Origin: Escherichia phage ECO319P1
Direction: 5' to 3' (one strand)
Sequence record: OP172790
Length of the DNA stretch: 64,000 nucleotides
Shown: piece by piece, positions 10,318-44,881 of the stretch
Numbering within the stretch: position 1 is the first letter of the stretch
Layout: every line of letters begins with the position of its first letter
The notes under the pieces: model-generated
Told to the model about the DNA's origin: nothing
Databases searched by the model: none
What the model saw: the letters and a program-made list of their open reading frames with translations, nothing else
Program-made: the position numbers and the translations under genes

Positions 10318-10892
10318 TGGCTGTTGTTCTCCGTAAAAACGCATCCCTGAACCTGTCCAAATCTGTAGCGGCTCTGACCACTTACCGTTTCGGCCTGTCT
10401 TGGGACGAAAGCGCTGACCTCGATGCTGTTGCAATGGTTGTTGATGAAAACGGTAAGCTGTTCCCGCCTGTTGAAAACAACATGGCATACTACGGCAACT
10501 GCACCGCTAACAAATTCGGCAATGCTGAAAACCCTGTTCCAGGTCTGACTCACTCCGGTGATGCTCGTGACGGCTCTGCTGCTGGCGACGACGAAACCAT
10601 CGTTATCGACACCACTAAGCTTCAGAAAGACCGCATCATCATTGCTGTAACCTCTTACAGTGAAAATGGCCCGGTTCCGTTCGCTGCTTCCGTTAATCCG
10701 GTTGCTAAACTGTACGACGACAAAGGCAATGTACTGGTCGAAGTTAAGCTGGACGAAAACGTTGCATTCAGCACCGCTGTTGAGTTCGTAGAGATTGCGA
10801 AAGTTAATGGCGACTGGACTGTAACCAACCTGACCAACCCGGCTGGTAACTCCGAAAACGGCCTGACCGACCTGCTGGCTGCACGTAGCTAA
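10317..10892 (+). CDS. terD: TerD-family protein
   Basis: GLSWDESADLDA and HSGDARDG...GDDE motifs align with E. coli TerD as recalled; length 191 aa. Confidence 0.75.
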   Translation: MAVVLRKNASLNLSKSVAALTTYRFGLSWDESADLDAVAMVVDENGKLFPPVENNMAYYGNCTANKFGNAENPVPGLTHSGDARDGSAAGDDETIVIDTTKLQKDRIIIAVTSYSENGPVPFAASVNPVAKLYDDKGNVLVEVKLDENVAFSTAVEFVEIAKVNGDWTVTNLTNPAGNSENGLTDLLAARS

Positions 10893-27054: not shown

Positions 27055-28854
27055 ATGTCAAAAGTATACGGAGCTAAACGGATTATCGGTGACTCACCTT
27101 GCCCAACTTGTACAGCGGCAGGTCGTGACAGAACCGGTAATCACTTGCAACACTGGATTAACGATGATACAGGCGAAGAGTGGGTTTATTGCGGACGTGA
27201 TGGTTACTATGAAAAGGTAACTGATGCAAACCGTGCTGACCTTGAATCTGTTCGTCATGTTCATCGTGAATTAACTGATGAAGAACGTGCAGCGGTTCTC
27301 GCTGAGGTTGACGAGTTGCCAATTCAGGAACTCACATCTCGTGGTATCCGAAAGGAAATCGCTGAACGTTATGGTGTTCGTGTTGGCCTGTCCAGCACTA
27401 ACCGTGAACAAATCTCTCACTTCTATCCGAAAGAGAAAGATGGTGAGGTGGTCGCTTATAAAGTTCGTAGTCTTGAGCCGAAGTATTTCTATGCGGTTGG
27501 TTCAGGTAGCGGATGTGATTTCTTTGGCATGTCTCAGGCTCGTCTGGGTGATGTGTACAGTGGCAAACTGTTCGTATTCGAAGATGAACTGAGTGCAATG
27601 TCAGGTTTCCAAGCTCTCATTGACGCATCCAAGTCAACTTACAAACCAGCATGTGTGGCTTTGCCAGATGGTGCAGGTTCGGCAGCAAGTGCATTTGCAC
27701 GTTGTCGTCAGTTTGTTGAGTCATTCCAAGATATCGTGGTCTGTATGGATAACGATGAAGCGGGTGATGATGCAGTTAACAAGCTGAGAGCGATGTATCC
27801 AAACATCAAGATTGCTCGTATTCCGAAGGGTATCTACGGTGACGGTAAGCATATCAAAGACGCCAATGACATGATTATGGCTAAGCGTTCTTTGGAGTTA
27901 AACAACTGCTTACGCTTCAATGCTGCAAAAGAATCTCCAGCAGGTTCAACAACTGTAGCGGAATGTATTGAAGATGCGCTGAAGAAACCTGAATGGGGTC
28001 TGAGTTATCCGTGGAAAGGTCTTACTGACTTAACCTTTGGTTTACGTTATGGTGAGGTGATTGCAATTGGTGGTGGTGTAGGTGGTGGTAAAACATTACT
28101 GGCACACGAACTGAGTGCTCACTTAATCAACGTTCACAAAGAGAAAGTTGGTGCATTCATGTTGGAAGAAACTGTAGGTAATACCATCAAGAACATTGCT
28201 GGTAAATCTGCAAATATTCCATTCCATCGTCCAGATGCTGAGTTCGACCCAGAACTGCTGAAAAGCGAAGCACTGAAATACGATGGTCACTTGTTCCTGT
28301 ATCGTAACTTCGGTCAAAACGATTGGGAAGATATCAAACGTTGTATGCGTTTCTGGGTTGTTGAACATGGTGTCAAGTTCATCTTCCTCGATAACATCAC
28401 AGCATTGGTATCACACTTGACAGCAACTGAGATTAACACTGAAGTTGCGAAGATTGCTGTTGAGTTGGCAGGTATGTGTAACGAGTTGGACTTCACTTGT
28501 TTTGTATTTAGCCACTTGAACCCACCGAAAGGTGGTGCTCCTCACGAGGAAGGTGGTCAAGTACAAGAGGTGCAGTTCACGGGTTCCCGTGCTCTGATGC
28601 GTTTCTCTCAGTTAATTCTGGGCTTTGAACGCAACAAGCAGGCAGATGGTGATGCTCGTAACCTTTCTCAGATTCGTCTGTTGAAAGACCGTAACTTCGG
28701 GCAGACAGGTCTTGTACCAACATCTTATAATCCAGTGACAGGCCGCTTAACACAGCGTCGTGATGAAGATTATGACCCGAAAAATCCGTTCCGCTTACCG
28801 GGTGAGCATGAGGACGACATGCAGGAAGATAATGGAAAGGATAAACCATTTTGA
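27055..28854 (+). CDS. bifunctional primase-helicase (T7 gp4-like)
   Basis: N-terminal Zn-binding Cys cluster, Toprim acidic motifs (FEDE, MDNDEAGDD), Walker A GGGVGGGKT. Confidence 0.85.
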   Translation: MSKVYGAKRIIGDSPCPTCTAAGRDRTGNHLQHWINDDTGEEWVYCGRDGYYEKVTDANRADLESVRHVHRELTDEERAAVLAEVDELPIQELTSRGIRKEIAERYGVRVGLSSTNREQISHFYPKEKDGEVVAYKVRSLEPKYFYAVGSGSGCDFFGMSQARLGDVYSGKLFVFEDELSAMSGFQALIDASKSTYKPACVALPDGAGSAASAFARCRQFVESFQDIVVCMDNDEAGDDAVNKLRAMYPNIKIARIPKGIYGDGKHIKDANDMIMAKRSLELNNCLRFNAAKESPAGSTTVAECIEDALKKPEWGLSYPWKGLTDLTFGLRYGEVIAIGGGVGGGKTLLAHELSAHLINVHKEKVGAFMLEETVGNTIKNIAGKSANIPFHRPDAEFDPELLKSEALKYDGHLFLYRNFGQNDWEDIKRCMRFWVVEHGVKFIFLDNITALVSHLTATEINTEVAKIAVELAGMCNELDFTCFVFSHLNPPKGGAPHEEGGQVQEVQFTGSRALMRFSQLILGFERNKQADGDARNLSQIRLLKDRNFGQTGLVPTSYNPVTGRLTQRRDEDYDPKNPFRLPGEHEDDMQEDNGKDKPF

Positions 28855-29345
28855 TTAAACTTGCAGCCACGGATATTGAAACGAATGGATTGTACTTTGA
28901 TGTAAATCTATTTCACTGTGCATGGATTGTGGAGCCATTAACCGGAAAACGGTTTGGCTTCCGTCCAGACCAACTTAAAGAATACGTTGAGAAGTTAATG
29001 ACTTATGACATTCTCATTGGTCACAACGTAATCGACTATGACTTCCCAACTATTAAGAAACTTTGTCCGGGATTTGAATGTCCGGCTGTTTTTGATACGT
29101 TGGTTCTTAGTCGTATGTTGGAACCAGACAGACCACAAGGTCACTCGTTGAAATCTTGGGGTGTAGCTCTTGGTTTGCTGAAAGGTGATTATGGTGAACA
29201 GGAAGATGCGTGGGACGTATTCACAGAGGACATGTATGTTTACTGTGAACGAGACGTTGACGTAACGGTTCTGCTCTATAAACACCTGTGTGAAAAGGCC
29301 GGTTTTGACTGGCAAAATCCACCATCAAATACTTTCAAATTCTGA
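28851..29345 (+). CDS. 3'-5' exonuclease domain of T7-type DNA polymerase, encoded as a separate gene
   Basis: Exo I DIETNGL, Exo II HNVIDYDF, Exo III YCERDVD; close to my recollection of T7 gp5 N-terminus; TTG start overlapping upstream stop. Confidence 0.75.
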   Translation: MIKLAATDIETNGLYFDVNLFHCAWIVEPLTGKRFGFRPDQLKEYVEKLMTYDILIGHNVIDYDFPTIKKLCPGFECPAVFDTLVLSRMLEPDRPQGHSLKSWGVALGLLKGDYGEQEDAWDVFTEDMYVYCERDVDVTVLLYKHLCEKAGFDWQNPPSNTFKF

Positions 29346-29361
29346 GTAAGGATACTCTGCG

Positions 29362-29383
29362 TTGGGTACTATAATATGTACCC
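29362..29383 (+). promoter_or_regulatory. variant promoter-like element inside a short palindrome
   Basis: TTGGGTACTATAATAT resembles the TTGCACATTATAATA core; GGGTAC/GTACCC inverted repeat around TATAAT. Confidence 0.3.
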
Positions 29384-29488
29384 TCGCTATTTTATTATGG
29401 ATAGCCTAATGGAAATCGCTGGAATCATGTTCCAGTATGATAGCGACCTTGATATTATTTTCGTAACTGATGAAATGGAGATTCTATA

Positions 29489-30043
29489 ATGTTACTTTCT
29501 GCACCCCAACTGCATAACTTAATCGACGATGGTGTTATTGATGCGTTACATGAAAACGTTAACTCAGCAAGTATCGACGTTCGTATTGGCTCTGAAATTC
29601 TGGTGGAAGCTAAGGTCAGCGAACTCACCGCTCCCGTGGACATCGCAGCTAAGGAATCTCCTCAGTTCGACAAAGTGACAATCCCCGAAGAAGGCGTTGT
29701 TATTAAGCCGGGTCAGTGCTTCTTGGCTCACACCGTTGAGACATTTAACCTGCCCGACACTATCAGTGGTCAATTCATTGAACGTTCCACTGTTGCTCGT
29801 TGTTTCCTTGAACACATGCAGGCTGGTTGGGCTGATGCTGGTTGGCATGGCGCTCAGCTCACTCTTGAGTTCAAGAACATGAACGAACACCACTCCCTGT
29901 TAATCAAGCCGGGTATGCGTATCGGTCAGATGGTATTCTTCCAGCACGAAACTGTTGGTGAGGATTCCTATGCTGTAAAAGGCAACTACAACAACCAACG
30001 TGGTGCAACTCAAGCTTACTCAGGAGAAGGTCATAATGTATAA
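29489..30043 (+). CDS. dcd: dCTP deaminase
   Basis: dUTPase-fold Dcd-like N-terminus; 184 aa. Confidence 0.7.
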   Translation: MLLSAPQLHNLIDDGVIDALHENVNSASIDVRIGSEILVEAKVSELTAPVDIAAKESPQFDKVTIPEEGVVIKPGQCFLAHTVETFNLPDTISGQFIERSTVARCFLEHMQAGWADAGWHGAQLTLEFKNMNEHHSLLIKPGMRIGQMVFFQHETVGEDSYAVKGNYNNQRGATQAYSGEGHNV

Positions 30044-30320
30044 GATTATTAAGTTCTACAGCGACACTTGTGCGCCTTGTAAAGCAATGGCTCCAATCTT
30101 TGACGACATTGCAGAAGAACTGTCCACAGATACTGTGGTATTCGGTTCAACCAACATCGGTGAAAGTGACAACCGCGCTGTTGCTCAGTCATTCGGTGTT
30201 CGTGGTCTTCCGACTGTTGTGATTCTGAAAGATGATGAAGCAGTTGGCATCAAAACTGGTGCTCAGACTAAAGATTCACTGAAGAAATTCATTACCGACA
30301 CAATTGGGGAGGCCAGCTAA
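30036..30320 (+). CDS. thioredoxin
   Basis: CAPC active site; start at ATG 30036 after GGAGAAGG RBS. Confidence 0.7.
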   Translation: MYKIIKFYSDTCAPCKAMAPIFDDIAEELSTDTVVFGSTNIGESDNRAVAQSFGVRGLPTVVILKDDEAVGIKTGAQTKDSLKKFITDTIGEAS

Positions 30321-30589
30321 TGGCCTTACTTAATCACATCCACCGCGACATGCTTAATCGTGTTATCAAACATGAAGATATTGTCGTCTGGTCAAATGGT
30401 AAGTACAACCAAAAGATGCGCTTAGCGCGTGTGGTTGATACTACACCTCAGAAGGTTCGCATCCAGTTGATTGACTCCCAGACAACCACACTGGCTCGCC
30501 CTCGGAATTTAATCGTTATCAGTGCTCAGATTGCTGCTAATCTGGAAGGTAACGTTGGTGCTAACATGGATATGGAGGCCACCCGATGA
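30320..30589 (+). CDS. hypothetical protein
   Basis: 89 aa ORF. Confidence 0.4.
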   Translation: MALLNHIHRDMLNRVIKHEDIVVWSNGKYNQKMRLARVVDTTPQKVRIQLIDSQTTTLARPRNLIVISAQIAANLEGNVGANMDMEATR

Positions 30590-31038
30590 TTCCTACGAAA
30601 CCTAAATCTTCAAGCAAGTCAAGTACAGACACTCTGCAAAGTTTGACTGGCAACCTGACTCTGCTTTACATCAAAGCAAAGAACTATCACTGGAATACAA
30701 CCGGCCCGAACTTCTACGGAGACCATCACACCTTTGATGGGATTCAGGATGGAGCATTGGACTGGATTGATACAGTTGGTGAACGTATTCGTGCACTGCA
30801 ACAGGGCATCTGTGCTTGTGCTGCTGCGTATCTTGAAGATGCGTGGTTCCCAGAAGGTGACTTTGAGTTAGACGCCGAGGGAATGAAAGCGGATATGGTT
30901 AAAACTCTTGACTGTATCAGTGCTCATATCATGGACATGATTAAGAGCGGCGAATTCGATGAAGTAACCTCTAACATCCTTCAGGATTTATGTGCATTCA
31001 TTGATAAGCAGAATTACTTTGTACGTAGTTCTCTGTAA
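30586..31038 (+). CDS. Dps-like ferritin-fold protein
   Basis: LYIKAKNYHWNTTGPNFYGDHHTFDGIQDG...VGERIRAL pattern of Dps. Confidence 0.55.
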   Translation: MIPTKPKSSSKSSTDTLQSLTGNLTLLYIKAKNYHWNTTGPNFYGDHHTFDGIQDGALDWIDTVGERIRALQQGICACAAAYLEDAWFPEGDFELDAEGMKADMVKTLDCISAHIMDMIKSGEFDEVTSNILQDLCAFIDKQNYFVRSSL

Positions 31039-31044
31039 GTAATA

Positions 31045-31070
31045 GGCTGGCGGATGCTGGCCTTTTCTGT
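31045..31070 (+). terminator. intrinsic terminator
   Basis: 7-bp stem (two G-U pairs), GGAT loop, TTTT tail. Confidence 0.5.
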
Positions 31071-31088
31071 CTATACAAGGAGTGTATA

Positions 31089-33212
31089 ATGGTTCGTGTA
31101 ACTAAACGTGATGGTAAGAACGTCGAGTTTGATATTAACCGTGTGATTAATGCCATTATGGCTGCTCAAAGCAATTTGGGTAAATCAAACTTTGATGAAG
31201 CACTGTCGATTGCAATGGCTGTGCAAGACCGATACATCAACGAAGAAAGTGTAACGATTGCTGATATTCAGAGTATGGTTGAAGACCTGCTGATGGTGAA
31301 AGACCCAGAGGTGGCTCGTAAGTATATCGAATATCGTGCAAAGCGTGACCGTGCTCGTGAGGAACAGTCCCCATTGGCGGTTGCCATTCGTGGATTAGTG
31401 GAGCAGACGGATGAATCAATCCTCAAAGAAAACGCTAACAAGGACGCAAAAGTCTTCCCTGTACAGCGAGATTTACTGGCAGGCGTGGTGTCTAAGCACT
31501 TCGCTCGCAATTACCTTCTTCCTCGTGATATTGTTGATGCTCACGAGAGAGGCGAAATTCATTACCACGATTTGGACTACTCTCCATTCCTACCTATGAC
31601 CAACTGTTGTTTGGTTGACCTCAAGGGTATGTTGAAGAATGGTTTCAAGTTAGGTAACGCTCAGATTGAGTCACCGAAATCTATTGGTGTGGCATGTGCA
31701 GTAATGGCTCAGATTACCGCTCAAGTTGCTTCTCACCAGTACGGTGGGACGACGTTCGCTAATATTGACCAAGTACTCGCACCGTATGCAGAGACAACCT
31801 TTAATAAGCACATGCAACGTGGTTATGATTGGGGGGTTTCAGATACGGAAGCCTATGCCAAAGAACTCACTGTTAAAGAAATTTATGATGGGATTCAAGC
31901 ATATGAATACGAAATTAATACCCTCTTCACCACAAATGGACAGCAACCATTCGTTACTGTTACATTCGGTATGGGAACTAGCTGGTTCGAACGAGAAATC
32001 CAGAAAGCAATCCTCAAGGTTCGTATTAAGGGTCTCGGCGCGGAAGGTCTCACTGCGGTTTTCCCGAAACTCGTAATGTTCATGGACGAGGGTATCAACC
32101 TTAAACCGGAAGACCCGAATTATGATATTAAGCAGCTTGCACTTGAATGCTCCTCCAAGCGTCTGTATCCAGATATTATCAGCGCGAAAGCTAACAGAGC
32201 TATCACTGGCTCAAACGTACCTGTTAGTCCTATGGGGTGTCGTTCTTTCCTCAGTGTGTGGAAGGACGGAGATGGAAATGAGGTGCTCGACGGACGCAAC
32301 AACCTCGGCGTTGTTAGTCTCAACCTTCCTCGTATTGCCATCGAATCAGGGAAGGATTTCAACAAATTCCTCACTATCCTTGACGAACGCCTTACACTTG
32401 CTAAAAGAGCACTTGATACCCGCATTGAACGCTTACGTGGTGTTAAAGCTGCTGTTGCCCCAATTCTCTACACCGAGGGAGCGTTTGGAGTTCGTCTCCA
32501 ACCCGATGATGATATCATCAATATCTTCAAGCACGGTCGAAGCTCTATTAGCTTGGGATACATCGGACTCCATGAAGTCGGACTTCTGATGTGGGATAAG
32601 TCCCCTTCGGATGATGAAGAAGTTGCACGTTCTTGTCGAGCAATTATTCGTCATTTAGCTAATGCTACTGAGAGGTGGAAGGAAGAGTCTGAAGAGGGCT
32701 GGGGTTATAGCTTATACGCTACACCTTCAGAGTCTCTGTGTGACCGATTCTGTCGTTTGGATAAAGAACAATTTGGGGAGATTGCTGGTGTCACTGACAA
32801 AGATTATTACACTAATAGTTTCCATCAGGATGTTTATAAGCATTCTAACCCTTTCGACAAGATTGACCATGAAGCGCCTTATCACTTTATTTCAAGTGCG
32901 GGTCATATTAGCTATGCTGAGTTTCCGAATGTTCGTAACAACCTCCAAGGTTTGGAAACAGTTTGGGACTACGCAATGAGCCATCTGGACTACTTCGGGA
33001 CAAACACTCCGAGCGATAAATGCTTGAAGTGCCACTTCGAAGGTGAGTTCAAGATTAACAGTGAAGGTTTCCACTGTCCGAATTGCGGCAATCATGACAG
33101 CAAATCAATGTCAGTGATTCGTCGTGTATGTGGGTATTTGGGTTCTCCAAATGCTCGTGGATTTAACCACGGAAAGAACGAGGAGGTCATTCGTCGTGTC
33201 AAACATGTCTGA
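31089..33212 (+). CDS. nrdD: anaerobic ribonucleoside-triphosphate reductase
   Basis: ATP-cone N-terminus, C-terminal glycyl-radical motif RRVCGYLGS and Zn ribbon CLKC...CPNC. Confidence 0.9.
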   Translation: MVRVTKRDGKNVEFDINRVINAIMAAQSNLGKSNFDEALSIAMAVQDRYINEESVTIADIQSMVEDLLMVKDPEVARKYIEYRAKRDRAREEQSPLAVAIRGLVEQTDESILKENANKDAKVFPVQRDLLAGVVSKHFARNYLLPRDIVDAHERGEIHYHDLDYSPFLPMTNCCLVDLKGMLKNGFKLGNAQIESPKSIGVACAVMAQITAQVASHQYGGTTFANIDQVLAPYAETTFNKHMQRGYDWGVSDTEAYAKELTVKEIYDGIQAYEYEINTLFTTNGQQPFVTVTFGMGTSWFEREIQKAILKVRIKGLGAEGLTAVFPKLVMFMDEGINLKPEDPNYDIKQLALECSSKRLYPDIISAKANRAITGSNVPVSPMGCRSFLSVWKDGDGNEVLDGRNNLGVVSLNLPRIAIESGKDFNKFLTILDERLTLAKRALDTRIERLRGVKAAVAPILYTEGAFGVRLQPDDDIINIFKHGRSSISLGYIGLHEVGLLMWDKSPSDDEEVARSCRAIIRHLANATERWKEESEEGWGYSLYATPSESLCDRFCRLDKEQFGEIAGVTDKDYYTNSFHQDVYKHSNPFDKIDHEAPYHFISSAGHISYAEFPNVRNNLQGLETVWDYAMSHLDYFGTNTPSDKCLKCHFEGEFKINSEGFHCPNCGNHDSKSMSVIRRVCGYLGSPNARGFNHGKNEEVIRRVKHV

Positions 33213-33237
33213 TGAACATCCGGATTTTTAGTATCGA

Positions 33238-33266
33238 GGGGCTCCTGCGGGAGCCTTTTCTTTTTG
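33238..33266 (+). terminator. intrinsic terminator after nrdD
   Basis: GGCTCC-TGCG-GGAGCC hairpin followed by TTTTCTTTTT. Confidence 0.7.
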
Positions 33267-33276
33267 GAGGTTTAAA

Positions 33277-33429
33277 TGATTGTTCGTAACCGATTGACTG
33301 GTCAATTCGAAAATGCCACTTTCAAAGATGGCTGTTGGGGTTTCCATGAAACTGACGTACAAGAAGGGCTGCCTGATTGCAGCACTGAAGAACAAAGAAG
33401 TGGAAGCGATAGCTCACCAAGCTAATTGC
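33277..33429 (+). CDS. small upstream ORF (50 aa) overlapping the macro gene start
   Basis: strong GGAGG RBS 5 nt upstream of ATG 33277; different frame from macro gene. Confidence 0.3.
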
Positions 33430-33816
33430 TTTTGCACCATGAAGTCTGGCATAGCACCACAGATTGCTAATGCTTGGCCTCAAGTCCGTGAAGTCGATAA
33501 GTTGACTAACTACGGTGACAAGGATAAGATGGGTTCATACTCACTTGCCACTGTTCCCGAAGGTTTTGTGTTCAACATCTATGGTCAATACCATTGGAAT
33601 CGGAGAAACGCTGGTTATGGCACTTCTTATGAGCATCTTGGGATGGGGCTGTCTAGCGTCGCTGACTTTATGGTTAATCATAAGGTTCAAACTTTGGGTC
33701 TGCCTCGAATTGGTTGTGGACTTGCTGGAGGCGATTGGGGGATTGTAGAACACCTAATCAAACACCACTTTGCACACACCGACATTGAAGTAATTGTCTA
33801 CGAACTGGAGAAGTAA
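33346..33816 (+). CDS. macro domain protein
   Basis: KLTYKKGCLIAALKNKEVEAIAHQAN aligns with the macro N-terminal G...AN motif; start placed at ATG 33346. Confidence 0.65.
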   Translation: MKLTYKKGCLIAALKNKEVEAIAHQANCFCTMKSGIAPQIANAWPQVREVDKLTNYGDKDKMGSYSLATVPEGFVFNIYGQYHWNRRNAGYGTSYEHLGMGLSSVADFMVNHKVQTLGLPRIGCGLAGGDWGIVEHLIKHHFAHTDIEVIVYELEK

Positions 33817-34943
33817 TGTTAAAGTTAAAAGTACTGGAAGAACTCGGTAAGCCATACAAAATCTTCACAGACCATGTGGAGAGCAGTGCTATTGAGCAGT
33901 TTGTTGCAGTGATGCAGCAGCCTGATGTGAAACAAGGTGCATTAATGCCTGATGTTCATGCAGGTTATGTTCTGCCAATTGGTGGTGTAGTTGCTACTGA
34001 GTGGACAATCTACCCATCGTTTGTCGGTTACGACATTGGTTGTGGTGTCTGCACCATGCCAACGGATATCAGTGCTCTCGACTTACTGGAAAACCCAGCT
34101 AAGTATAAAGCAGCAGTTGAAAAGGTTGTACCTGTGGGCTTCACTGTCCATCAGCAACCATTCGACTTAGCTGAACTGGAACGCCACATTGGTCGTGCTC
34201 CAGAAAGTATTCGTGACATTGCTGAGAGCCATCTGACTCAGGTTGGTACTCTTGGTGGTGGTAATCACTTTGTTGAAATCGGTATCGCTGAGAAAGATGG
34301 TCGTGTTCACATCAGCATTCACTCAGGCTCTCGTGGCATGGGTGCTCGTGTTGCTGAGAAATACATGCAGCTTTCAGGTGGTGAAGGTATCAACCCAATT
34401 GACACTCGTGAACCACTTGGTCGTGAGTATCTGGCTGCTATGAATTACTGCTTACGTTGGGCATTGTTCAACCGTAAGATGATGGTTAAGAATATTATGG
34501 AAGAGTTAGGTCTGGAGTTTAACACCTATCGTACACCTGATATCTTCATCAACCGTAATCATAACCACGCAGAATTCAAGGATGGTTTGTGGATTCATCG
34601 TAAGGGAGCTACACATGCTGAAGATGGAATGTTCGGCGTTATCCCAGCTAACATGCGTGATGGAGTTTACATTGTACGTGGGCGCGGTAACCCTGACTCT
34701 CTTTGCTCTTCTTCTCACGGCGCTGGTCGTGTCATGTCTCGGTCAAAAGCCAAAAAGACTTTCTCTCTGGAAGACTTCCAGTATCAGATGGGTAATGTCG
34801 ATGCTGATGGGTTTACTATTGATGAAAAGCGTATTGACGAAGCACCGGGTGCATATAAAGACATTCACGAAGTGATGAAAAATCAGACTGACTTGATTGA
34901 CATCATTGACCATGTTAAACCAGTTGTAAACGTTAAGGGTTAA
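33816..34943 (+). CDS. rtcB: RtcB-type RNA ligase
   Basis: GGNHF, HNHAEF and SSSHGAGR motifs. Confidence 0.8.
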   Translation: MLKLKVLEELGKPYKIFTDHVESSAIEQFVAVMQQPDVKQGALMPDVHAGYVLPIGGVVATEWTIYPSFVGYDIGCGVCTMPTDISALDLLENPAKYKAAVEKVVPVGFTVHQQPFDLAELERHIGRAPESIRDIAESHLTQVGTLGGGNHFVEIGIAEKDGRVHISIHSGSRGMGARVAEKYMQLSGGEGINPIDTREPLGREYLAAMNYCLRWALFNRKMMVKNIMEELGLEFNTYRTPDIFINRNHNHAEFKDGLWIHRKGATHAEDGMFGVIPANMRDGVYIVRGRGNPDSLCSSSHGAGRVMSRSKAKKTFSLEDFQYQMGNVDADGFTIDEKRIDEAPGAYKDIHEVMKNQTDLIDIIDHVKPVVNVKG

Positions 34944-34945
34944 TT

Positions 34946-35194
34946 ATGAGCTTCACAACAATGCCAACTTGTCCACGCTGTAGCTTCAAGATGCACATCA
35001 GTGCTCGCGGTCAGTATAGTTGTTCCAATTGTGGACACCGTAAGGATATTCCGGGAAGTTCTTCTAACAGTGGAACTCCGGCATATGACCCTTGGGTTAT
35101 GAGTCAGTACGACTCTACTCCGAGCTATGACCCAACACCATCTTACTCAAGTGACTGCTCAAGCTCTGACTTTGGCAGTTGCTCTTTCGACTAA
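34946..35194 (+). CDS. small zinc-ribbon protein with Ser/Pro-rich tail
   Basis: CPRC...CSNC. Confidence 0.4.
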   Translation: MSFTTMPTCPRCSFKMHISARGQYSCSNCGHRKDIPGSSSNSGTPAYDPWVMSQYDSTPSYDPTPSYSSDCSSSDFGSCSFD

Positions 35195-35203
35195 GGCGGA
35201 ATA

Positions 35204-35704
35204 ATGAATTACCATCAATATTACCCAACGGATATGCTAAATGGGCCGGGAATCAGGAACGTACTCTTCGTCAGTGGTTGCACACACGGATGCAAAGGTT
35301 GTTACAATGAGTCTACTTGGAATCCAAAATCGGGTATGGCCTTCACAAAAGAGTTGGAAGACCAGATTATCCGAGACCTCCAAGATACGCGAATCAAGCG
35401 TGATGGACTCACCCTCTCCGGAGGTGACCCGCTTCATGAAAGAAATATTCTACCCCTCATTCAGTTAGTACAGCGAGTGAGAAAAGAGTGCCCCGATAAG
35501 ACAATCTGGATGTGGACTGGATATACGCTTCCTGAACTGGAGGCTATGCGTGACCACACTCAGGTTCACAGTGACCGGTATTATCTGGCAACACTTGTTG
35601 ATGTTCTTGTTGATGGTAAGTTTGTTCAAGAGTTGCATGACCCTACGCTGAAGTTTGTTGGGTCGTCCAATCAAAACATTATCGAAATTAAAAATGTATC
35701 GTAA
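35204..35704 (+). CDS. nrdG: anaerobic RNR activating enzyme (radical SAM)
   Basis: C-x3-C-x2-C cluster in GCTHGCKGC near N-terminus; 166 aa. Confidence 0.75.
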   Translation: MNYHQYYPTDMLNGPGIRNVLFVSGCTHGCKGCYNESTWNPKSGMAFTKELEDQIIRDLQDTRIKRDGLTLSGGDPLHERNILPLIQLVQRVRKECPDKTIWMWTGYTLPELEAMRDHTQVHSDRYYLATLVDVLVDGKFVQELHDPTLKFVGSSNQNIIEIKNVS

Positions 35705-35867
35705 CCTGCAACGTCGAAATCCAGAATGTGACTGGTGTTTTTGTCTCTTACAAGTTGTAAGGGGTGAAGATTATAATGACTATTATAAATGTCCGCAATG
35801 TGGTGAGACTACTCCAATGCCTCAACCCAACTTCGACGATTACGACGATTTAGATTACTTAAATTAA
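35694..35867 (+). CDS. small zinc-ribbon protein
   Basis: CDWCFC...CPQC; start uncertain. Confidence 0.3.
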   Translation: MYRNLQRRNPECDWCFCLLQVVRGEDYNDYYKCPQCGETTPMPQPNFDDYDDLDYLN

Positions 35868-35881
35868 GGGAGAAGAGATTC

Positions 35882-36027
35882 ATGGAAGATAAACAATCAA
35901 TTGCGGAATGGTGCTATACTCAGCGTGACTTGGCTTTTGCAGAAGGTCGTGTTGATGATGGCAATAATTATCAACGCCTCGGCGCAATGTGGCAAGAGCG
36001 CGAGGAGAAGAAAGCTAAGGAGGCATA
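35882..36027 (+). CDS. hypothetical small protein (48 aa)
   Basis: GGGAGAAGAG RBS; under 60 aa. Confidence 0.3.
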
Positions 36028-36369
36028 ATGCCTAGCTCTCCGGGATACGTCCGCAATTATAAACAAGAACGCTTGACAGCCATTAAACGCGGTGAAACAA
36101 GCGTAGGTGCCAAGTCTAAGGATGCAATGCGACACAAAGCTCGTCGTCTTGTTGAGAAACGACTTGGTAAGAAGTTGCCAACATCAGTTCAGGTTGACCA
36201 TAAGAAAACACTGAAATCTGGTGGTGGTAATACGAGTTCAAACTTACGAGTCCGTGATGCACATAGCAATATGTCGGCGGGTGGTAAGTCAGGTTCTCGT
36301 GCTGGTAAGGCTGCTGGTGGTCGCAAAGGTGCTAGCAAACGTTTACCGGTAAAGAAACCTAGCAAATAA
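36028..36369 (+). CDS. basic protein with HNH-like segment
   Basis: VDHKKTLKSGGGNTSSNLRVRDAHSN; Lys/Arg-rich. Confidence 0.4.
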   Translation: MPSSPGYVRNYKQERLTAIKRGETSVGAKSKDAMRHKARRLVEKRLGKKLPTSVQVDHKKTLKSGGGNTSSNLRVRDAHSNMSAGGKSGSRAGKAAGGRKGASKRLPVKKPSK

Positions 36370-36372
36370 GGA

Positions 36373-36397
36373 AGCTGCCTTCGGGCGGCTTTTGTTG
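36373..36397 (+). terminator. intrinsic terminator (UUCG tetraloop)
   Basis: AGCTGCC-TTCG-GGCGGCT then TTTTGTTG. Confidence 0.65.
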
Positions 36398-36539
36398 TCT
36401 ATGAGATTCAAGTTCTGTAAATGTTGTAACAAGTGGCTTATGCCATTTGATTTTAAACTCTCTGAGAATTCGGATGATGGACGCTTTCCGATTTGCAAAG
36501 AGTGTGTTGAAGATTTATACTTAACTCAGGTAGAAAACT

Positions 36540-36815
36540 ATGAAAGATATTATGCGTGATATGGAAATCCGTACTTACTCCACTAAAGGTCATTTTGTTG
36601 AAGCGGAAGCTCTGACAATTCTGTACCCGAGTGAAGTTGACCTGTTCGTTGAGGCATTTGTTGATGCCACTGAAAGTGAGTTAAGCTTTGCAGCTAAGCT
36701 GTATCGCTCGCAAGGTAAGCTGGACACCAACGACCATGTAGCACGTACACTCCGCACTAACATCGCAATCCGTGACCCTAAGACTGGTCGCTTTCTGCCG
36801 TGGAGCAAGAAATAA
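36540..36815 (+). CDS. hypothetical protein
   Basis: 91 aa ORF. Confidence 0.35.
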   Translation: MKDIMRDMEIRTYSTKGHFVEAEALTILYPSEVDLFVEAFVDATESELSFAAKLYRSQGKLDTNDHVARTLRTNIAIRDPKTGRFLPWSKK

Positions 36816-37123
36816 TGATTGGCGAAATCATCACTACAGCACGAGTAATGAATCAGAGCCGCGACACAAGAAGTGTTGCGCTCAAAGTTGCTGAAGAAAC
36901 TGGTGAGTTGGCTCAAGCAGTCAACAAGAATCAGGGATATGATGAAATCGTTAGTGAAGTTGCTGACGTTATCATCGCAGTGACAGATGTGGGCTGGCAA
37001 GCTTTCCTCGATAAGTGGGGTAAATATGCACTTGACAATGATGTTAAAGAAAAATACGAAGCCGACTTAATGACCGCTATTGGTGAGAAACTGAACAAAT
37101 GGGTTCAGGTGTACGGCGAGTAA
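36815..37123 (+). CDS. MazG-like nucleotide pyrophosphohydrolase
   Basis: EETGELAQAV...VSEVADVIIAV helix pair; ATG overlaps upstream stop. Confidence 0.55.
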   Translation: MIGEIITTARVMNQSRDTRSVALKVAEETGELAQAVNKNQGYDEIVSEVADVIIAVTDVGWQAFLDKWGKYALDNDVKEKYEADLMTAIGEKLNKWVQVYGE

Positions 37124-37137
37124 ACTAAGGAGAAGAT

Positions 37138-38973
37138 ATGGAAATCACATCAAGCTGGGACAAACCGTTCCAACTCGAACAGAAAGTGGCTCACATTATT
37201 AGCCAACAAGCAAAGCATGGATGCGACTTCAATAGTCGTAATGCTCATTGGTATGTTCATCTGTTAACTGAACGTATCATCAACATTGATTTGCAGTTGG
37301 TTCCAACTCTGCCACCTATGATGCACAAAGGCACTGAATACAAGGCTCCGTTCAAGATGAATGGTAAGCCGAAGGTGTTTGTCCAGAAGTATATGGACGC
37401 TCAAGGTCTGACAGAGGATATGGTAGGTGGCCCGTTTACAGCGGTGTGGTTTACCCCGTTCGACCCAAGTAAAACTTCACGTCTAAAAGATGTGATGTTG
37501 GACATGGGGTGGATGCCTACTGAATGGAACCAGAAGAAGATGCCGTTTCAACTTTGGACGTATAAAAAGCGTCTGGAGAAGACGACCTTCCGCAAGTTCA
37601 TGGAAGAGCAGACAAGTACCGACGAACGTGAACTATTTCTTCCCTTAGTTAATGGTTTTGTTGCTCAACATTTTGTTGGGAAATCAAAAGGTTACATGAA
37701 AGCAATCCTCAGTGCTCTGGGGTTTGATTTAAAGCGTGTACCGAATTTTGACCAGATTAAGAAGCGTCTTTTGTTGAGTCAGTTCTGGCCGACTTCTCCA
37801 AAAATCACTGAAGATTCATTTGAGTCAGTAAGTGAGGAAGAAGGTCATTCACTGAAACTCCTGAAAGAGCGTATGGTGTGGTCGCACCGTCGTTCACTGA
37901 TTCAGGGTTTGATTGAACTGACTCGTCAGGATGGTAAAATCTCTGGTGAAGCTAACCCATGTGCAACTCCGACAGCACGTATGAGACACAAGGGTATTGT
38001 AAACATTCCAGCCGCAGGTGCTCCTTTCGGTGAAGAGTGTCGCTCATTGTTCCGTGGTAATAAACGTACTGGAACAAAAGCAAAGATTATTCATAAACTT
38101 ACTGCACAGATGGTTGAATCTGGTAAGTTTCGTCGTAAACCGTTCACTAATATCATGCAGGTTTCAAATGGTAAAGGTGGATGGGAAGACGAAGGTCATG
38201 TATCATTCCTGATTCCAGCGGGGCAAGATGCTTTCGTTGGTGGTGATGGTGCAGGTCTTGAACTTCGAATGTTGACTCACTACCTGATTGCAGTATCCAA
38301 AATGCTTCTGAAAGACGCTGAGGAAGCGGGTAATGATAAGTTAATCCGTTACTACGGTGCCGCTTTACAGTCAGCATATGAGTATCGTGAGGTTCTTCTG
38401 AATGGTGATATTCACAGTCACAACCAGAAGCTCGCAGGTCTGCCAACTCGTAAGTCAGCTAAGACGTTTATCTACGCATTCTTATATGGTGCTGGTGATG
38501 CGAACTTGGGTGGTCAACTTGGTGCAGGCCGTGAAGAGGGTGCAGCTTTACGTGCTCGATTCTTGAAAGAATGTCCTTGTATTCCAGTTCTGATTGAGTG
38601 GGTTCAGGATTTTGCCAAGAAGAATGGTTGGGTTCCGGCAATTGATGGTCGTAAACTTATCATGCGTCGTGACCCTTTCAGTGGCGAAGTTATGGCTCAC
38701 AAAGCACTGAATACAATGTTACAAGCAGCAGGTTCAATCGTGATGAAATATGCAGGTTGTTATCTGACTTCTTGGAATGCTCGTGATTGCTTAGATGCAC
38801 ATCAGGTTATCATGATGCACGATGAATATCAGTTCACTTGCAAATGGGAAGATGTTGAAGCTTTACGTCGTAACATTGACTCGTGTGTTAAGAAAGCTGG
38901 TGAATATTTGAAAATGGAATGTCCATTAGCGTCTGACTCAATGTTAGGTGCAAACTGGCTTCATACCCACTAA
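37138..38973 (+). CDS. family A DNA polymerase, polymerase domain only (T7 gp5-like)
   Basis: motif A DGAGLELRM, motif B KTFIYAFLYGAG, motif C HDEYQF. Confidence 0.85.
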   Translation: MEITSSWDKPFQLEQKVAHIISQQAKHGCDFNSRNAHWYVHLLTERIINIDLQLVPTLPPMMHKGTEYKAPFKMNGKPKVFVQKYMDAQGLTEDMVGGPFTAVWFTPFDPSKTSRLKDVMLDMGWMPTEWNQKKMPFQLWTYKKRLEKTTFRKFMEEQTSTDERELFLPLVNGFVAQHFVGKSKGYMKAILSALGFDLKRVPNFDQIKKRLLLSQFWPTSPKITEDSFESVSEEEGHSLKLLKERMVWSHRRSLIQGLIELTRQDGKISGEANPCATPTARMRHKGIVNIPAAGAPFGEECRSLFRGNKRTGTKAKIIHKLTAQMVESGKFRRKPFTNIMQVSNGKGGWEDEGHVSFLIPAGQDAFVGGDGAGLELRMLTHYLIAVSKMLLKDAEEAGNDKLIRYYGAALQSAYEYREVLLNGDIHSHNQKLAGLPTRKSAKTFIYAFLYGAGDANLGGQLGAGREEGAALRARFLKECPCIPVLIEWVQDFAKKNGWVPAIDGRKLIMRRDPFSGEVMAHKALNTMLQAAGSIVMKYAGCYLTSWNARDCLDAHQVIMMHDEYQFTCKWEDVEALRRNIDSCVKKAGEYLKMECPLASDSMLGANWLHTH

Positions 38974-38982
38974 GGTGATAAC

Positions 38983-39156
38983 ATGCACGGATATGGTGAC
39001 AACAGAAAGGTAGACTGGATGTGGTGCTCTTGTAAGAAGTGCATGAAGTCCAGTAGCTACAAACTTTCAAACGACTACAAGGCTGAGAAGAAGCTCGGTC
39101 GTAGTAAAGCTCGTCAAATTGCTAAACAAGAATGTCAGGAGTTAAGTTATGAGTAA
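38983..39156 (+). CDS. small Cys-rich protein (57 aa)
   Basis: CSCKKC motif; under 60 aa. Confidence 0.3.
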   Translation: MHGYGDNRKVDWMWCSCKKCMKSSSYKLSNDYKAEKKLGRSKARQIAKQECQELSYE

Positions 39157-39541: not shown

Positions 39542-39751
39542 ATGCAGTACATTGATAAATATAGTGGTGAGAAGGGTGAAGAAACCCTGTTTATCTTTAA
39601 AACAGATTGTCTGGAGCAAGGTCAGTTGATTAACTTCACTGAACTGGCTAACCTGAAAGAAGAGATTGACCGCTTGTATGGTGATGAACAGTCTCGTATC
39701 CTGAACGAATCACTTCTTGGTGATTACACTTGTGATGGTTGCACAATATGA
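39542..39751 (+). CDS. hypothetical protein
   Basis: 69 aa ORF. Confidence 0.3.
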   Translation: MQYIDKYSGEKGEETLFIFKTDCLEQGQLINFTELANLKEEIDRLYGDEQSRILNESLLGDYTCDGCTI

Positions 39752-39951
39752 GTCTTGCAAAAGAGTTCATGGACTTTATCGTTGACAATGAAATACCACT
39801 ATCAGACAGGGCTGCTGCCCTGATTGGTAAGCTTGGTGTTGCTGACGAAGAACTTGAGTGGCTTTCCTGTCTCAATGCTGCTGGTGTTGATAATTGGGAA
39901 GGCTGTGACTATGCTGCTGACTTGCTGAGGGAGAGAACAGATGAATGTTAA
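39739..39951 (+). CDS. hypothetical protein
   Basis: 70 aa ORF. Confidence 0.3.
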   Translation: MHNMSLAKEFMDFIVDNEIPLSDRAAALIGKLGVADEELEWLSCLNAAGVDNWEGCDYAADLLRERTDEC

Positions 39952-41731: not shown

Positions 41732-42289
41732 ATGGCAAAGCGACTAAGTGCTCCAGTTCCAAAGAAGGAACATTATAAAGACTTCGATGAATTATATCGT
41801 GAGTATTGGGCACCACTTCAGAAACAATTCTTCTACATGGAAAAGGATTATCAGCTTGCTGAGGATTTAGCTCAGGAAACGATGCTCCGAGTGTGGCAGT
41901 ATTGGGACAGAATCCAGTGGGATAAACTTGGTGGTGTGATTGGTACAATTGCCAACAACGTCCGGTACGGTTATGTTCGAAAAGAATTTGACCGAGTTGA
42001 TACAGAGATGTACGACAACATTCTGGATTTTGAATGTCATGATGATGGCTTAACTGACCCAATTCGTGATGTATTAAATAATGAGGCAAGCACTTTTGTT
42101 CAGTATGCTTTTGAGAAGCTTAAACCACAGGAACGTGAGTTGTTCTCGGATGTTTATCTGAAGAACCTGAAAACAAAAGATGTTGCAAAGAAACATGGTA
42201 TGACTACTGGCCATATCTATGTTCAATTGTTCCGTATTCGAACTCAACTGGTTACTAACCTTGAGCGTCACGATATTGGAACAAACTAA
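41732..42289 (+). CDS. phage sigma factor (sigma70 family, ECF-like size)
   Basis: region 2-like AEDLAQETMLRVWQYW and region 4 HTH-like LKTKDVAKKHGMTTGHIYVQLFRIR. Confidence 0.6.
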   Translation: MAKRLSAPVPKKEHYKDFDELYREYWAPLQKQFFYMEKDYQLAEDLAQETMLRVWQYWDRIQWDKLGGVIGTIANNVRYGYVRKEFDRVDTEMYDNILDFECHDDGLTDPIRDVLNNEASTFVQYAFEKLKPQERELFSDVYLKNLKTKDVAKKHGMTTGHIYVQLFRIRTQLVTNLERHDIGTN

Positions 42290-42301
42290 GGAGAATATAA
42301 C

Positions 42302-42502
42302 ATGGAAGTTGTATACCAGAACGGCATGTATGAAGTAAAAGTTAATCGGTACGATAATGAGTACCTAGTTGTTAACGTGAAGACTGATGTGGTTGAGGCT
42401 CGTGAATCGGCATTGCCCACAGCAGAATACAAAGCTGATGCTCTTCGTGAAGTTACGCTGAAACGTAATGAAGTTAAGGGTAAAGCGGAGGCAGCACAAT
42501 AA
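42302..42502 (+). CDS. hypothetical protein
   Basis: 66 aa ORF. Confidence 0.35.
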   Translation: MEVVYQNGMYEVKVNRYDNEYLVVNVKTDVVEARESALPTAEYKADALREVTLKRNEVKGKAEAAQ

Positions 42503-43398
42503 TGCGAGTCCTCCTTGATTGCGACATTCTAAGATATCAAATCGGTTCAGTGAAAGCTGCTCACCCATTCTTAAAGGGAGAGTTTGTTCCTGCTCCTGAG
42601 TCGGAGATTTGTCGGTTGGTCGAGGATTTGATTCAGCATGTGATTAAGATTAATAAGGCAGACAGTTATGTCTGTCCTTTATCCGGTAAAGGTAATTTCC
42701 GATTGGACATTGCCAAACAGGAACCCTATAAGGGTAATCGAGACCCAAACGTAACACGACCTTTTCACTATGACACTGTTGGTGACTACATCATTAAGAA
42801 CCACCCTCACGTAATTGTTGATGGGATGGAAGCAGATGATTGGCTAGGCATCGAGCAGCGTAAAGACCCAGAGAATACTTGTATTGCGTCAAGGGATAAA
42901 GACCTTGGAACCGTATTTGGTTATCACTACCGTTGGGCTTGTGGCGAATATCAGCCAGAAAGAACAATTCACTGGATAACTCCATACGAAGCAACTGAGT
43001 TCTTCTTCCACCAAATGCTCACAGGCGACAACACAGATAATATTCTTGGGTGTGGTAAGCGTGAGATGGTTAAGTGGGGAGGCAAAATGATGCTTCGCCG
43101 CAAGGGTGTTGGTAAGGGTGCTGCTGATAAGATTTTAGCAACTTGCTCAACCGTACAAGAAATGTATGATGCTGTTAAGGCTGAATACGAAAAAATTTTT
43201 AGTGACGAGCACGAGGATGTGATGCTCGAAAATGCCAGATTGCTCTACATTGGGCAAACACCAGACAAACTGTTTGAGTGGGACTGGCTTGACTACCAAC
43301 TAAGTAAGGATACTAACGATGAACTTTTACCAACTGAACAGCCTGAATGCACCGGACACCCTACTGATGGTGAATCTGAGCCTTATCACGAAGATTGA
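42502..43398 (+). CDS. 5'-3' exonuclease / flap endonuclease
   Basis: N-terminal VLLDCDILRY and SRDKDLGTV motifs. Confidence 0.65.
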   Translation: MRVLLDCDILRYQIGSVKAAHPFLKGEFVPAPESEICRLVEDLIQHVIKINKADSYVCPLSGKGNFRLDIAKQEPYKGNRDPNVTRPFHYDTVGDYIIKNHPHVIVDGMEADDWLGIEQRKDPENTCIASRDKDLGTVFGYHYRWACGEYQPERTIHWITPYEATEFFFHQMLTGDNTDNILGCGKREMVKWGGKMMLRRKGVGKGAADKILATCSTVQEMYDAVKAEYEKIFSDEHEDVMLENARLLYIGQTPDKLFEWDWLDYQLSKDTNDELLPTEQPECTGHPTDGESEPYHED

Positions 43399-43792: not shown

Positions 43793-44881
43793 ATGAAAAA
43801 AGAGCTATTTGCTGTTGATAAGAACGACAACATTAAACATTGGACTGTCGAAACTAATGGTGCTGAGATTATTGTCTGTCATGGACGATACCAAGGCAAG
43901 ATGCAGAAGAAAGTGACAGTCTGTAAAGCTAAGAATATTGGGAGGGCGAATGAAACAACACCCGAAGACCAAGCGATTCTGGAAGCAGAAGCTAAGTACA
44001 CCAAGCAAATCGACAAGTGCTATCGGGCGACTATTGAAGAGGCAAGACGAGTCGGTCAAGTCCTTCCTATGCTCGCTCATAATTTCCTTGACCACGGGCA
44101 TCGTATTAGCTTTCCTTGCTATGTCAGTGCTAAGCTGGATGGTGTACGATGCGTTGCAACTGTGGAAGATGGTGCTGTCACACTAACAAGTCGTGGTGGT
44201 AAGGAATATCCTTGCCCAGAGGCAATTCATGATGAACTGGTTCACCTTAGTTATCTCACTGGAATTACTAAGTTTGATGGCGAGCTTTATATTCATGGTA
44301 CGAAGCTTCAACACATTGTGTCGGCTGTTAAAAAACCTAACGACTTGACTCCGAAGTTGAAGTATTGTATCTTTGACTTACCGAACACTGATAAGTGGGA
44401 AGACCGTTGGTTAAAGCTCAAAGACATTAAGAATAAATATCGTCTTGACCACATGGAAATCGTTGATTGTATCAAAGTTGAGAACAAACTCTCAGCGGAA
44501 ATGATGCTTCACAAATACATGGGTCAAGGTTACGAGGGTCTGATGCTTCGTAATCTGGATGGGAAGTATGAATACAACCATCGTTCAGCAGATTTACAGA
44601 AGTGGAAAATCATGCAAGACCTCGAAGCCAAGGTAATTAGTGTTGCAGAAGATAAGAATGGTGAGGGTGTCCTGACTTGCCATATAGCGGGTGAACCCGA
44701 TAAAATCTTCGATGTTAAAATGCGTGGGACACATGAGGAACGTCTGGTTGACAATCAGAAGAAGTTGATTGGCAAGTGGATTGTTGTTATTTATCAGGCA
44801 TTTACAGAAGCAGGGTTGCCTCAGTTCCCGGTAGGCAGCCATGTCCGTGAATGTGATGAAGAGGGGAACCCAATTGAATAA
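43793..44881 (+). CDS. ATP-dependent DNA ligase
   Basis: motif I KLDGVR; 362 aa. Confidence 0.8.
   Translation: MKKELFAVDKNDNIKHWTVETNGAEIIVCHGRYQGKMQKKVTVCKAKNIGRANETTPEDQAILEAEAKYTKQIDKCYRATIEEARRVGQVLPMLAHNFLDHGHRISFPCYVSAKLDGVRCVATVEDGAVTLTSRGGKEYPCPEAIHDELVHLSYLTGITKFDGELYIHGTKLQHIVSAVKKPNDLTPKLKYCIFDLPNTDKWEDRWLKLKDIKNKYRLDHMEIVDCIKVENKLSAEMMLHKYMGQGYEGLMLRNLDGKYEYNHRSADLQKWKIMQDLEAKVISVAEDKNGEGVLTCHIAGEPDKIFDVKMRGTHEERLVDNQKKLIGKWIVVIYQAFTEAGLPQFPVGSHVRECDEEGNPIE

Follow-up and report, generated by a model that had tools for sequence, protein, structure and literature searches.

A T7 gp5-type DNA polymerase probably split into separate proofreading and polymerase subunits in Escherichia phage ECO319P1

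Separate genes for the 3'-5' exonuclease and the polymerase of a T7-type DNA polymerase are already known, by annotation and comparative genomics, for the phage group considered here. LUZ24-like phages have carried the annotations "DNA polymerase part I" and "part II" for years (PMC3890496), both open reading frames (ORFs) are annotated as DNA polymerase in the GenBank records of GAP52, A24, 7-11 and BUCT695, the PHROGs database has families named "DNA polymerase exonuclease subunit", and a kuravirus paper from 2023 stated the separation for phage 7-11 and its relatives (PMC9965538). A fission between exonuclease and polymerase has also been described in S-SBP1-like T7-like phages by Czernecki et al. 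2023 (PMC10201439), and thioredoxin was proposed as the polymerase processivity factor in 2021 (PMC7881722). The locus described here lies within 64,000 nt of Escherichia phage ECO319P1 (OP172790), below called the window, with coordinates counted from window position 1. An earlier reading of the letters alone (the sequence-only reading) had claimed exonuclease and polymerase genes 7.8 kb apart, and both ORFs are present, the first with a TTG and the second with an ATG start, and with 7,792 nt between the exonuclease stop and the polymerase start (Table 1). The replicative polymerase of this phage is probably a T7 gp5-type family A enzyme, the gene of which was anciently split at the linker between exonuclease and thumb, with halves that would reassemble non-covalently.

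The 164-residue product of the upstream gene matches Pfam DNA_pol_A_exo1 (E 8e-6), and T7 DNA polymerase is its sole match in a PDB sequence search, with residues 6–139 aligned to T7 residues 3–172 (E 2.5e-8). Its AlphaFold model has a predicted local distance difference test score (pLDDT) of 94.7 and superposes on the T7 exonuclease domain with a template modelling (TM) score of 0.82 (E 5.5e-12), and in a fold search every one of the best 27 hits was T7 polymerase. D8 and E10 of Exo I, N59 and D64 of Exo II and D135 of Exo III are invariant among 26 homologues, Y131 is nearly invariant among them, and so is the C-terminal tail AGFDxxNPP. The Exo I–III motifs and the gp5-like domain that had been read from the sequence are thus confirmed by Pfam, PDB, fold and invariant residues, and the product is predicted to be a complete, catalytically intact gp5-type proofreading domain (DEDDy), with the catalytic residues located on a polypeptide separate from the polymerase.

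The downstream gene has its own ATG, preceded by an AAGGAG Shine-Dalgarno sequence, and the 611-residue product matches Pfam DNA_pol_A (E 1e-23). T7 gp5 is by far the best PDB match (E 2.9e-38, against only about 1e-9 for Klenow and Bst polymerases), and a Foldseek search with the model (pLDDT 86.5) likewise gives T7 polymerase at E 1.5e-25 and Bst at about 1e-16. D370 and E375 of motif A, R438, K442, Y446 and Y450 of motif B, and H561, D562 and E563 of motif C are invariant in 36 homologues, as expected for the separate polymerase gene with motifs A, B and C proposed earlier. D370/E375, R438/K442/Y446 and HDE align to T7 D475/E480, R518/K522/Y526 and HDE, and the Tyr at position 3 of motif B (B3) is of the T7 type, Y446 corresponding to Y526. 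With these motifs, and with gp5 as the closest protein, the polymerase belongs to the T7-like family A enzymes (CDD cd08643; cluster #5 of Czernecki et al. 2023). The thumb helices stand at the very start of the model, where E14 is invariant and W7, P10, F11 and L13 are consensus residues. A second exonuclease domain hidden in the 611-residue protein was considered and ruled out, since none is found by Pfam or in the AlphaFold model and a profile-profile comparison of the exonuclease and polymerase alignments (hhalign) gives a probability of 0.1%. By sequence and model the protein is a complete gp5-type polymerase domain with thumb, palm and fingers. The ratio of nonsynonymous to synonymous substitutions (dN/dS) against GAP52 is 0.046 for the exonuclease and 0.075 for the polymerase, indicating strong purifying selection on both. 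The model also contains two confidently predicted insertions that are absent from T7 gp5, a helical segment of about 100 residues after the thumb (residues about 137–235; 37546–37842) and a beta-rich one of about 55 residues just before motif A (about 308–365; 38059–38232), the second of which varies across the clade.

When the exonuclease and polymerase sequences are concatenated and aligned globally, they are colinear with T7 gp5 residues 1–704, and the junction falls at about T7 201/202, in the linker between exonuclease and thumb. The exonuclease end NPPSNTFKF is aligned to T7 FPPEIDFTD and the polymerase start MEITSSW to T7 VGYTTFW, and on the PHROG profile phrog_17 the two proteins span positions 670–827 and 834–1233 respectively. 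Alignment to gp5, which had been suggested for defining the domain boundaries, therefore gives halves that are colinear with it, and the break is a clean linker cut with nothing lost and nothing spare. A search for intein or homing-endonuclease remnants at the split had been suggested as well and was negative: there are no spare residues, an Rfam scan of the window that included group I and group II introns matched no family, and no homing-endonuclease remnant is found at either boundary of the split. A marginal HNH match (PHROG, E 7e-4) is located in an ORF at 36028–36369, about 770 nt upstream of the polymerase gene.

In nucleotide sequence, Cronobacter phages GAP52 and A24 (Grimontviridae, Crifsvirus) share about 89% identity with the window, which comes from a Crifsvirus-like member of the Grimontviridae. 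The layout was compared in ten genomes, namely the window, GAP52 and BUCT695 (Grimontviridae), ECBP2 (kuravirus-like), U47 (LUZ24-like) and the metagenomic contigs L090–L094. In all ten the helicase stop overlaps the exonuclease start, and 1.9–9.3 kb then follow before the polymerase gene. As in the helicase-coupled split PolA of Grimontviridae, kuravirus-like and LUZ24-like phages, where exonuclease genes have about 160–180 codons and polymerase-only genes about 545–615, the polymerase-only gene of the window (611 residues) is found downstream on the same strand with other genes in between. The genes in the gap differ: the window has NrdD/NrdG, RtcB and a macro-domain protein, L092 and L093 have PhoH, ThyX and an ATP-cone standing alone, and U47 has small ORFs only. 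The gap thus behaves as a cargo locus, variably filled with genes for nucleotide metabolism and RNA repair. All of the best 120 polymerase homologues are at most 618 residues long, and all 85 exonuclease homologues from a word-indexed search at most 187. An exhaustive search among 1.84 billion representatives gave stand-alone proteins for 18 of the 20 best hits and none of at least 500 residues among these 20; fused forms (at least 500 residues, with an N-terminal exonuclease) account for roughly half of the more distant hits. A scan of IMG/VR returned mostly distant T7-like polymerases (about 30%), and only three loci from the split clade. In a neighbour-joining tree of the polymerase domain the split lineages form one clade, and the fused relatives T7, Vibrio phage N4, the Zobellviridae CVT22 and 409E50-1, and Epa26 are all placed outside it, which answers the proposed comparison with phages having a fused gene; the tree of the short exonuclease sequence is less resolved. 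The simplest history would be one ancient fission in an ancestor of the Grimontviridae, kuravirus-like and LUZ24-like phages, with cargo inserted between the halves afterwards.

The sequence-only reading had also claimed translational coupling of the exonuclease to the primase-helicase, and the two ORFs do overlap. The helicase stop TGA (28852–28854) overlaps the exonuclease TTG (28851–28853) in a 4-nt TTGA, and such an overlap is present in all ten genomes, of 1–17 nt (TGATG, TAATG or TTGA) in the nine relatives. An AAGGA Shine-Dalgarno sequence lies 9 nt upstream of the TTG, and with an in-frame stop two codons upstream, no start other than the TTG could be used ahead of the Exo I motif. Given this weak start codon, its TTGA overlap and the closed frame upstream, exonuclease translation in this phage is likely to be coupled to that of the helicase by termination-reinitiation. 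The C-terminus of the helicase itself (28801–28851) is an acidic tail whose last residue is Phe (...EHEDDMQEDNGKDKPF; EDDMQEDNGKDKPF). Grimontviridae relatives keep the closing K/R-P-F, and the tail is similar to the C-terminal one with which T7 gp4 docks on gp5/thioredoxin. The gp4 tail of T7 docks on gp5 in PDB entry 6P7E, and this entry is among the fold matches of the polymerase model.

That the phage encodes its own thioredoxin, as had been noted, is supported by a Pfam Thioredoxin match (E 2e-18) and by E. coli TrxA as a PDB match (E 9e-15), with residues 24–104 aligned; the first 20 or so residues of TrxA have no counterpart. Thioredoxin homologues occur throughout the Grimontviridae and the kuravirus-like phages. 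Between the thumb helices of the polymerase, at the position of the thioredoxin-binding domain of T7 (77 residues), there is an ordered, lysine-rich insertion of 55 residues (58–112). Its C-terminal half is clearly homologous to T7 residues 319–335 (GGPFTAVWFTPFDPSK aligned to T7 GAPYTPVEHVVFNPSS), and P56, P59, P71, F72, G76, F100 and F108 of the polymerase are invariant in the 36 homologues. About 29% of the T7-like polymerase cluster has a thioredoxin-binding domain of at least 50 residues (PMC10201439), and this domain is therefore no strict criterion for membership. It is possible that the phage thioredoxin binds the shortened thumb insertion as a processivity factor. Differences from the GAP52 polymerase are enriched about 3-fold in residues 58–118, and co-variation of thioredoxin and thumb loop was examined in the window, GAP52, L090–L094 and BUCT695; it was not supported, as the initial signal between window and GAP52 was removed by L090, which has a window-type thioredoxin but a GAP52-type loop (93% identical), and by L094, in which the loop is present and thioredoxin is not found in the interval. 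The body of the thioredoxin gene (30097–30310) is an island of divergence, with about 48% amino acid identity to the GAP52 thioredoxin and almost no alignment beyond the CAPC motif, flanked by dcd, an 89-codon ORF and the Dps-like gene that are about 97–99% identical to GAP52 in nucleotide sequence. Two thioredoxin types, of 94–99 and 87 residues, are patchily distributed among close relatives, which suggests allelic replacement by recombination.

In the proposed working of the split enzyme, the exonuclease would be made by ribosomes terminating at the helicase stop, and the exonuclease and polymerase polypeptides would reassemble non-covalently into a gp5-like holoenzyme with the proofreader and the polymerase as separate subunits. 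The AGFDxxNPP tail of the exonuclease and the N-terminus of the polymerase (E14, with W7, P10, F11 and L13) are candidates for the docking surface. The holoenzyme would act in a T7-style replisome together with the gp4-like helicase, whose acidic, Phe-ended tail would dock onto the basic insertion of the thumb. For S-SBP1, in which exonuclease and polymerase were split independently, an AlphaFold2 complex of the two superposes on an unsplit relative (PMC10201439), and the split family B polymerase of PhiKZ forms a stable 1:1 complex (PMC13648687).

Joining of the two ORFs into one polypeptide or mRNA, by a split intein, trans-splicing, a giant intron or recoding, would fit a gene family in which introns and homing endonucleases are known (a probable group I intron in BUCT695, in motif B and not at the exonuclease-polymerase break, and homing endonuclease genes nearby in GAP52), but no residues are missing or spare at the break, which excludes split inteins, and the ORFs are separated by several terminators and by at least 15 conserved genes, each translated independently; together with the negative Rfam scan and the polymerase's own start signals this leaves joining effectively refuted. 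A sequencing or assembly artefact, which would have undone the claim of a split, or an exonuclease ORF in decay, has next to no probability, as the same layout recurs in independently sequenced isolates and metagenomic contigs, and the low dN/dS and invariant catalytic residues of the exonuclease speak against a remnant. A more serious rival is that the exonuclease is no stable subunit but a helicase-associated or free, exchangeable nuclease with a level set by helicase translation, working either as an epsilon-like proofreader in trans or as a nuclease for the replication fork or host DNA. All ten genomes have the exonuclease start overlapping the helicase stop and the polymerase kilobases away, which would agree with this, as would the hairpins between the two genes, and the extra insertions of the polymerase could substitute for contacts with the exonuclease. 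We consider it unlikely, because the exonuclease is gp5-like and not DnaQ- or TREX-like in its fold matches, the linker was cut cleanly with nothing lost, the terminal segments flanking the cut are conserved on both sides, and reassembly is predicted for a T7-like PolA with an independent split (PMC10201439). Since the exonuclease may be made by termination-reinitiation from the helicase message, it may be tethered to the helicase and not fixed to the polymerase; a bolder combination, in which such a tethered, exchangeable trans-proofreader is paired with the truncated phage thioredoxin as a dedicated clamp on the shortened thumb insertion, is quite improbable. If true, exonuclease dosage would be set independently of the polymerase, giving tunable fidelity, and the T7-type replisome core would consist of four parts (helicase, exonuclease, polymerase and phage thioredoxin) with an assembly logic unlike that of T7. 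The reassembled gp5-type enzyme is thus the reading we prefer, but several points weigh against it. At least three strong terminator-like hairpins are located between the genes (31044–31063, 33236–33259 and 36370–36393), so that expression of the two need not be stoichiometric; in a scan of the sequence for σ70 promoters and terminators the overall counts were not above chance, and only the three long-stem intergenic hairpins were notable. The two ordered insertions absent from T7 mean that the architecture of the complex could differ from gp5, the thumb insertion is 22 residues shorter than the thioredoxin-binding domain of T7, no co-variation of thioredoxin type and thumb loop is left once L090–L094 and BUCT695 are added, and no published biochemical test of a two-subunit exonuclease-polymerase enzyme in the split clade was found in the literature.

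The link between thioredoxin and polymerase has an evenly balanced alternative, in which the phage thioredoxin is unrelated to the polymerase and serves as a redox cofactor for the nucleotide-metabolism cargo (for example ribonucleotide reductases) or in general thiol redox; the insertion in the thumb would then have host thioredoxin or acidic tails as its ligand, or none. The thioredoxin gene stands among dcd and nrdD in the window and beside class I ribonucleotide reductase genes in BUCT695, and the mixed pairing in L090 and the loop without a thioredoxin in the interval of L094 agree with a separate role. The same can be said of the LUZ24-like polymerases, in which the loop residues are invariant as well, while the organism groups listed for the thioredoxin search include no Pseudomonas phage and no thioredoxin is found in the annotated stretch of U47; AlphaFold2, moreover, did not dock host thioredoxin on another split PolA (PMC10201439). 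Conservation of thioredoxin in the kuravirus-like phages, and an ordered, lysine-rich insertion exactly at the thioredoxin-binding position with a C-terminal half homologous to T7, argue for the polymerase instead. The class III reductases of E. coli and T4 use formate and not thioredoxin, which also speaks against the redox reading. On balance the polymerase link is no more likely than a redox role in nucleotide metabolism.

Both genes belong to a densely packed module for replication and nucleotide metabolism on the plus strand, at about 27–39 kb of the window, with at least 15 ORFs between exonuclease and polymerase. The intervening genes named by the sequence-only reading (Dcd, thioredoxin, Dps-like, nrdD, macro, rtcB and nrdG) are all recovered by Pfam or PDB matches, and several small ORFs are also found in the gap upstream of the MazG-like gene. 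The macro-domain protein is weak in Pfam, with a best PDB match of E 1.2e-13, and its PHROG label is "phosphatase".

Table 1. Features of the split polymerase locus in the window.
Feature	Position	Strand	Evidence
Primase-helicase, T7 gp4-type, 599 residues	27055..28854	+	Pfam DnaB_C, Helic-prim_T7_N, Toprim_2
Predicted stand-alone 3'-5' proofreading exonuclease, 164 residues, corresponding to T7 gp5 1 to about 201	28851..29345	+	Pfam, PDB, fold
Hairpin GGGTAC-TATAATAT-GTACCC, then T-rich tail, just 3' of exonuclease gene	29364..29383	+	Hairpin scan
dCTP deaminase, cargo	29489..30043	+	Pfam DCD, E 1e-38
Phage thioredoxin, 94 residues counted from ATG, CAPC active site	30036..30320	+	Pfam Thioredoxin, E 2e-18
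Conserved ORF, 89 residues	between thioredoxin and Dps-like genes	+	
Dps-like ferritin-fold protein, cargo	30586..31038	+	Pfam Ferritin; PDB Dps, E 5e-13
NrdD, anaerobic ribonucleotide reductase, cargo	31089..33212	+	Pfam NRDD, E 9e-177; ATP-cone; Gly_radical
Macro-domain protein, cargo	33313..33816	+	PDB macrodomain and OARD1, E 1e-13 to 1e-10
RtcB RNA ligase, cargo	33816..34943	+	Pfam RtcB, E 7.5e-80
NrdG activase, cargo	35204..35704	+	Pfam Fer4_12, E 2.6e-51; Radical_SAM
MazG-like nucleotide pyrophosphohydrolase, directly 5' of polymerase gene	36800..37123	+	Pfam MazG; PHROG, E 4e-24
Predicted polymerase subunit, 611 residues, corresponding to T7 gp5 about 202–704	37138..38973	+	Pfam, PDB, fold, alignment
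Thumb-tip insertion, polymerase codons 58–112, 55 residues	37309..37473	+	Model, alignment to T7

The palindrome just downstream of the exonuclease gene is identical in GAP52, and a looser copy with 3 mismatches is located at 42348–42365, after the sigma-factor gene; it is possibly a weak terminator or a phage promoter element. The dCTP deaminase of the window produces dUTP, and no dUTPase or ThyX match above threshold was found among the ORFs scanned at 27–47 kb, so that the MazG-like protein might clear dUTP. In BUCT695, too, a MazG-like gene is annotated next to the polymerase gene, and in other relatives (L090–L093) the place upstream of the polymerase gene is taken by a small ORF of about the same size. 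At the position of nrdD, two 7-11-like metagenomic relatives have a stand-alone ATP-cone ORF of about 90 codons with no reductase body (L092 5665–5937 and L093 7426–7716), adjoining ThyX and PhoH.

The polymerase of BUCT695 (L002, 13605–14217), which looks like a "three-part" enzyme, is an interrupted gene. Its coding sequence breaks off after ...PTRKSAKTF (residue 444) and continues in the same frame from IYAFLYGAGD (residue 445), within motif B, where there is no start codon. The 613-nt insert contains an endonuclease ORF and matches the Rfam group I intron over its full length, although below threshold (E 0.0026). Of the polymerase homologues in the database, about a quarter (about 445–463 residues) end at this point, so the intron appears widespread; the polymerase gene of the window has none.

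The wider module is T7-like as well. A 5'-3' exonuclease (42502–43398) and an ATP-dependent ligase (43793–44881) are encoded in the window, as is a sigma factor of the ECF (extracytoplasmic function) type (41732–42289), and a homologue of T7 endonuclease I is found in relatives (L090, L091 and L094). Relatives also have an ORF of the T7 gp5.9 family just upstream of the endolysin gene, and the window ORF 39739–39951 is in the equivalent position.

As a discovery the split amounts to little, since it is annotated in the nearest relatives and both the fission and the role of thioredoxin in processivity have been published. Its modest value is as a natural experiment: a family A replicase was split long ago at the linker between exonuclease and thumb and has stayed split, with the proofreader gene fixed to that of the helicase. 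It could be used to study how unlinked proofreading and polymerisation domains communicate, how subunit dosage relates to fidelity, and a thioredoxin clamp supplied by the phage. The variable gap of 2–9 kb also shows clearly how cargo builds up where a gene has been split.

Among described systems GAP52 is the closest, with gp067 and gp051 as orthologues of the exonuclease (95% amino acid identity) and the polymerase (93%), identical gene order and the same TTGA overlap of helicase and exonuclease. The gap between the two genes is 8.5 kb in GAP52 and 7.8 kb in the window, which lacks the homing endonuclease after nrdD (GAP52_060) and the extra ORF GAP52_055A (insertion sites compared at 33205–33275 and 36015–36039 in the window and at 7180–7645 and 10380–10767 in the GAP52 locus, L001) and carries the other thioredoxin allele. 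A 57-codon ORF right after the polymerase gene (38983–39156) is not in GAP52 but is present in L090 and L091. The "DNA polymerase part I / part II" of the LUZ24-like phages (Bruynoghevirus) has the same fission point, and the kuravirus-like phages (phiEco32, ECBP2 and YF01) encode 3'-5' exonuclease and polymerase separately with that fission point too; both groups share the helicase-exonuclease overlap and belong to the monophyletic polymerase clade, and their polymerase identity to the window is 42–47%. The gap consists of 1.9 kb of small ORFs in LUZ24-like phages and is 9 kb in ECBP2, and the LUZ24-like polymerases are shorter (about 546 residues), with thioredoxin not found in those phages. 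The S-SBP1 cyanophage is similar in having a T7-like PolA cut between the domains into two genes, a shortened thioredoxin-binding domain and a predicted reassembly, but its genes are adjacent and overlapping after a recent +1 frameshift, and it has unsplit close relatives. This arrangement is not seen at the present locus, where no unsplit close relative was found and all nearest homologues are split. The fission in the window clade is older, is shared by several families, leaves the genes kilobases apart and has the exonuclease tied to the helicase gene, and from these differences it is evidently independent of that in S-SBP1. In E. coli Pol III alpha/epsilon and in PhiKZ, separate polypeptides also form one enzyme, although these belong to families C and B and serve as analogies only. 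T7 gp5 with E. coli thioredoxin (PDB 1T7P, 6N7W) is the closest solved structure for both halves and has the same motifs, and the two systems share an insertion at the thioredoxin-binding position of the thumb and a gp4-like helicase whose acidic tail has Phe as its last residue. They differ in that gp5 is one chain of 704 residues, T7 uses the thioredoxin of its host, and the polymerase of the window has two extra insertions.

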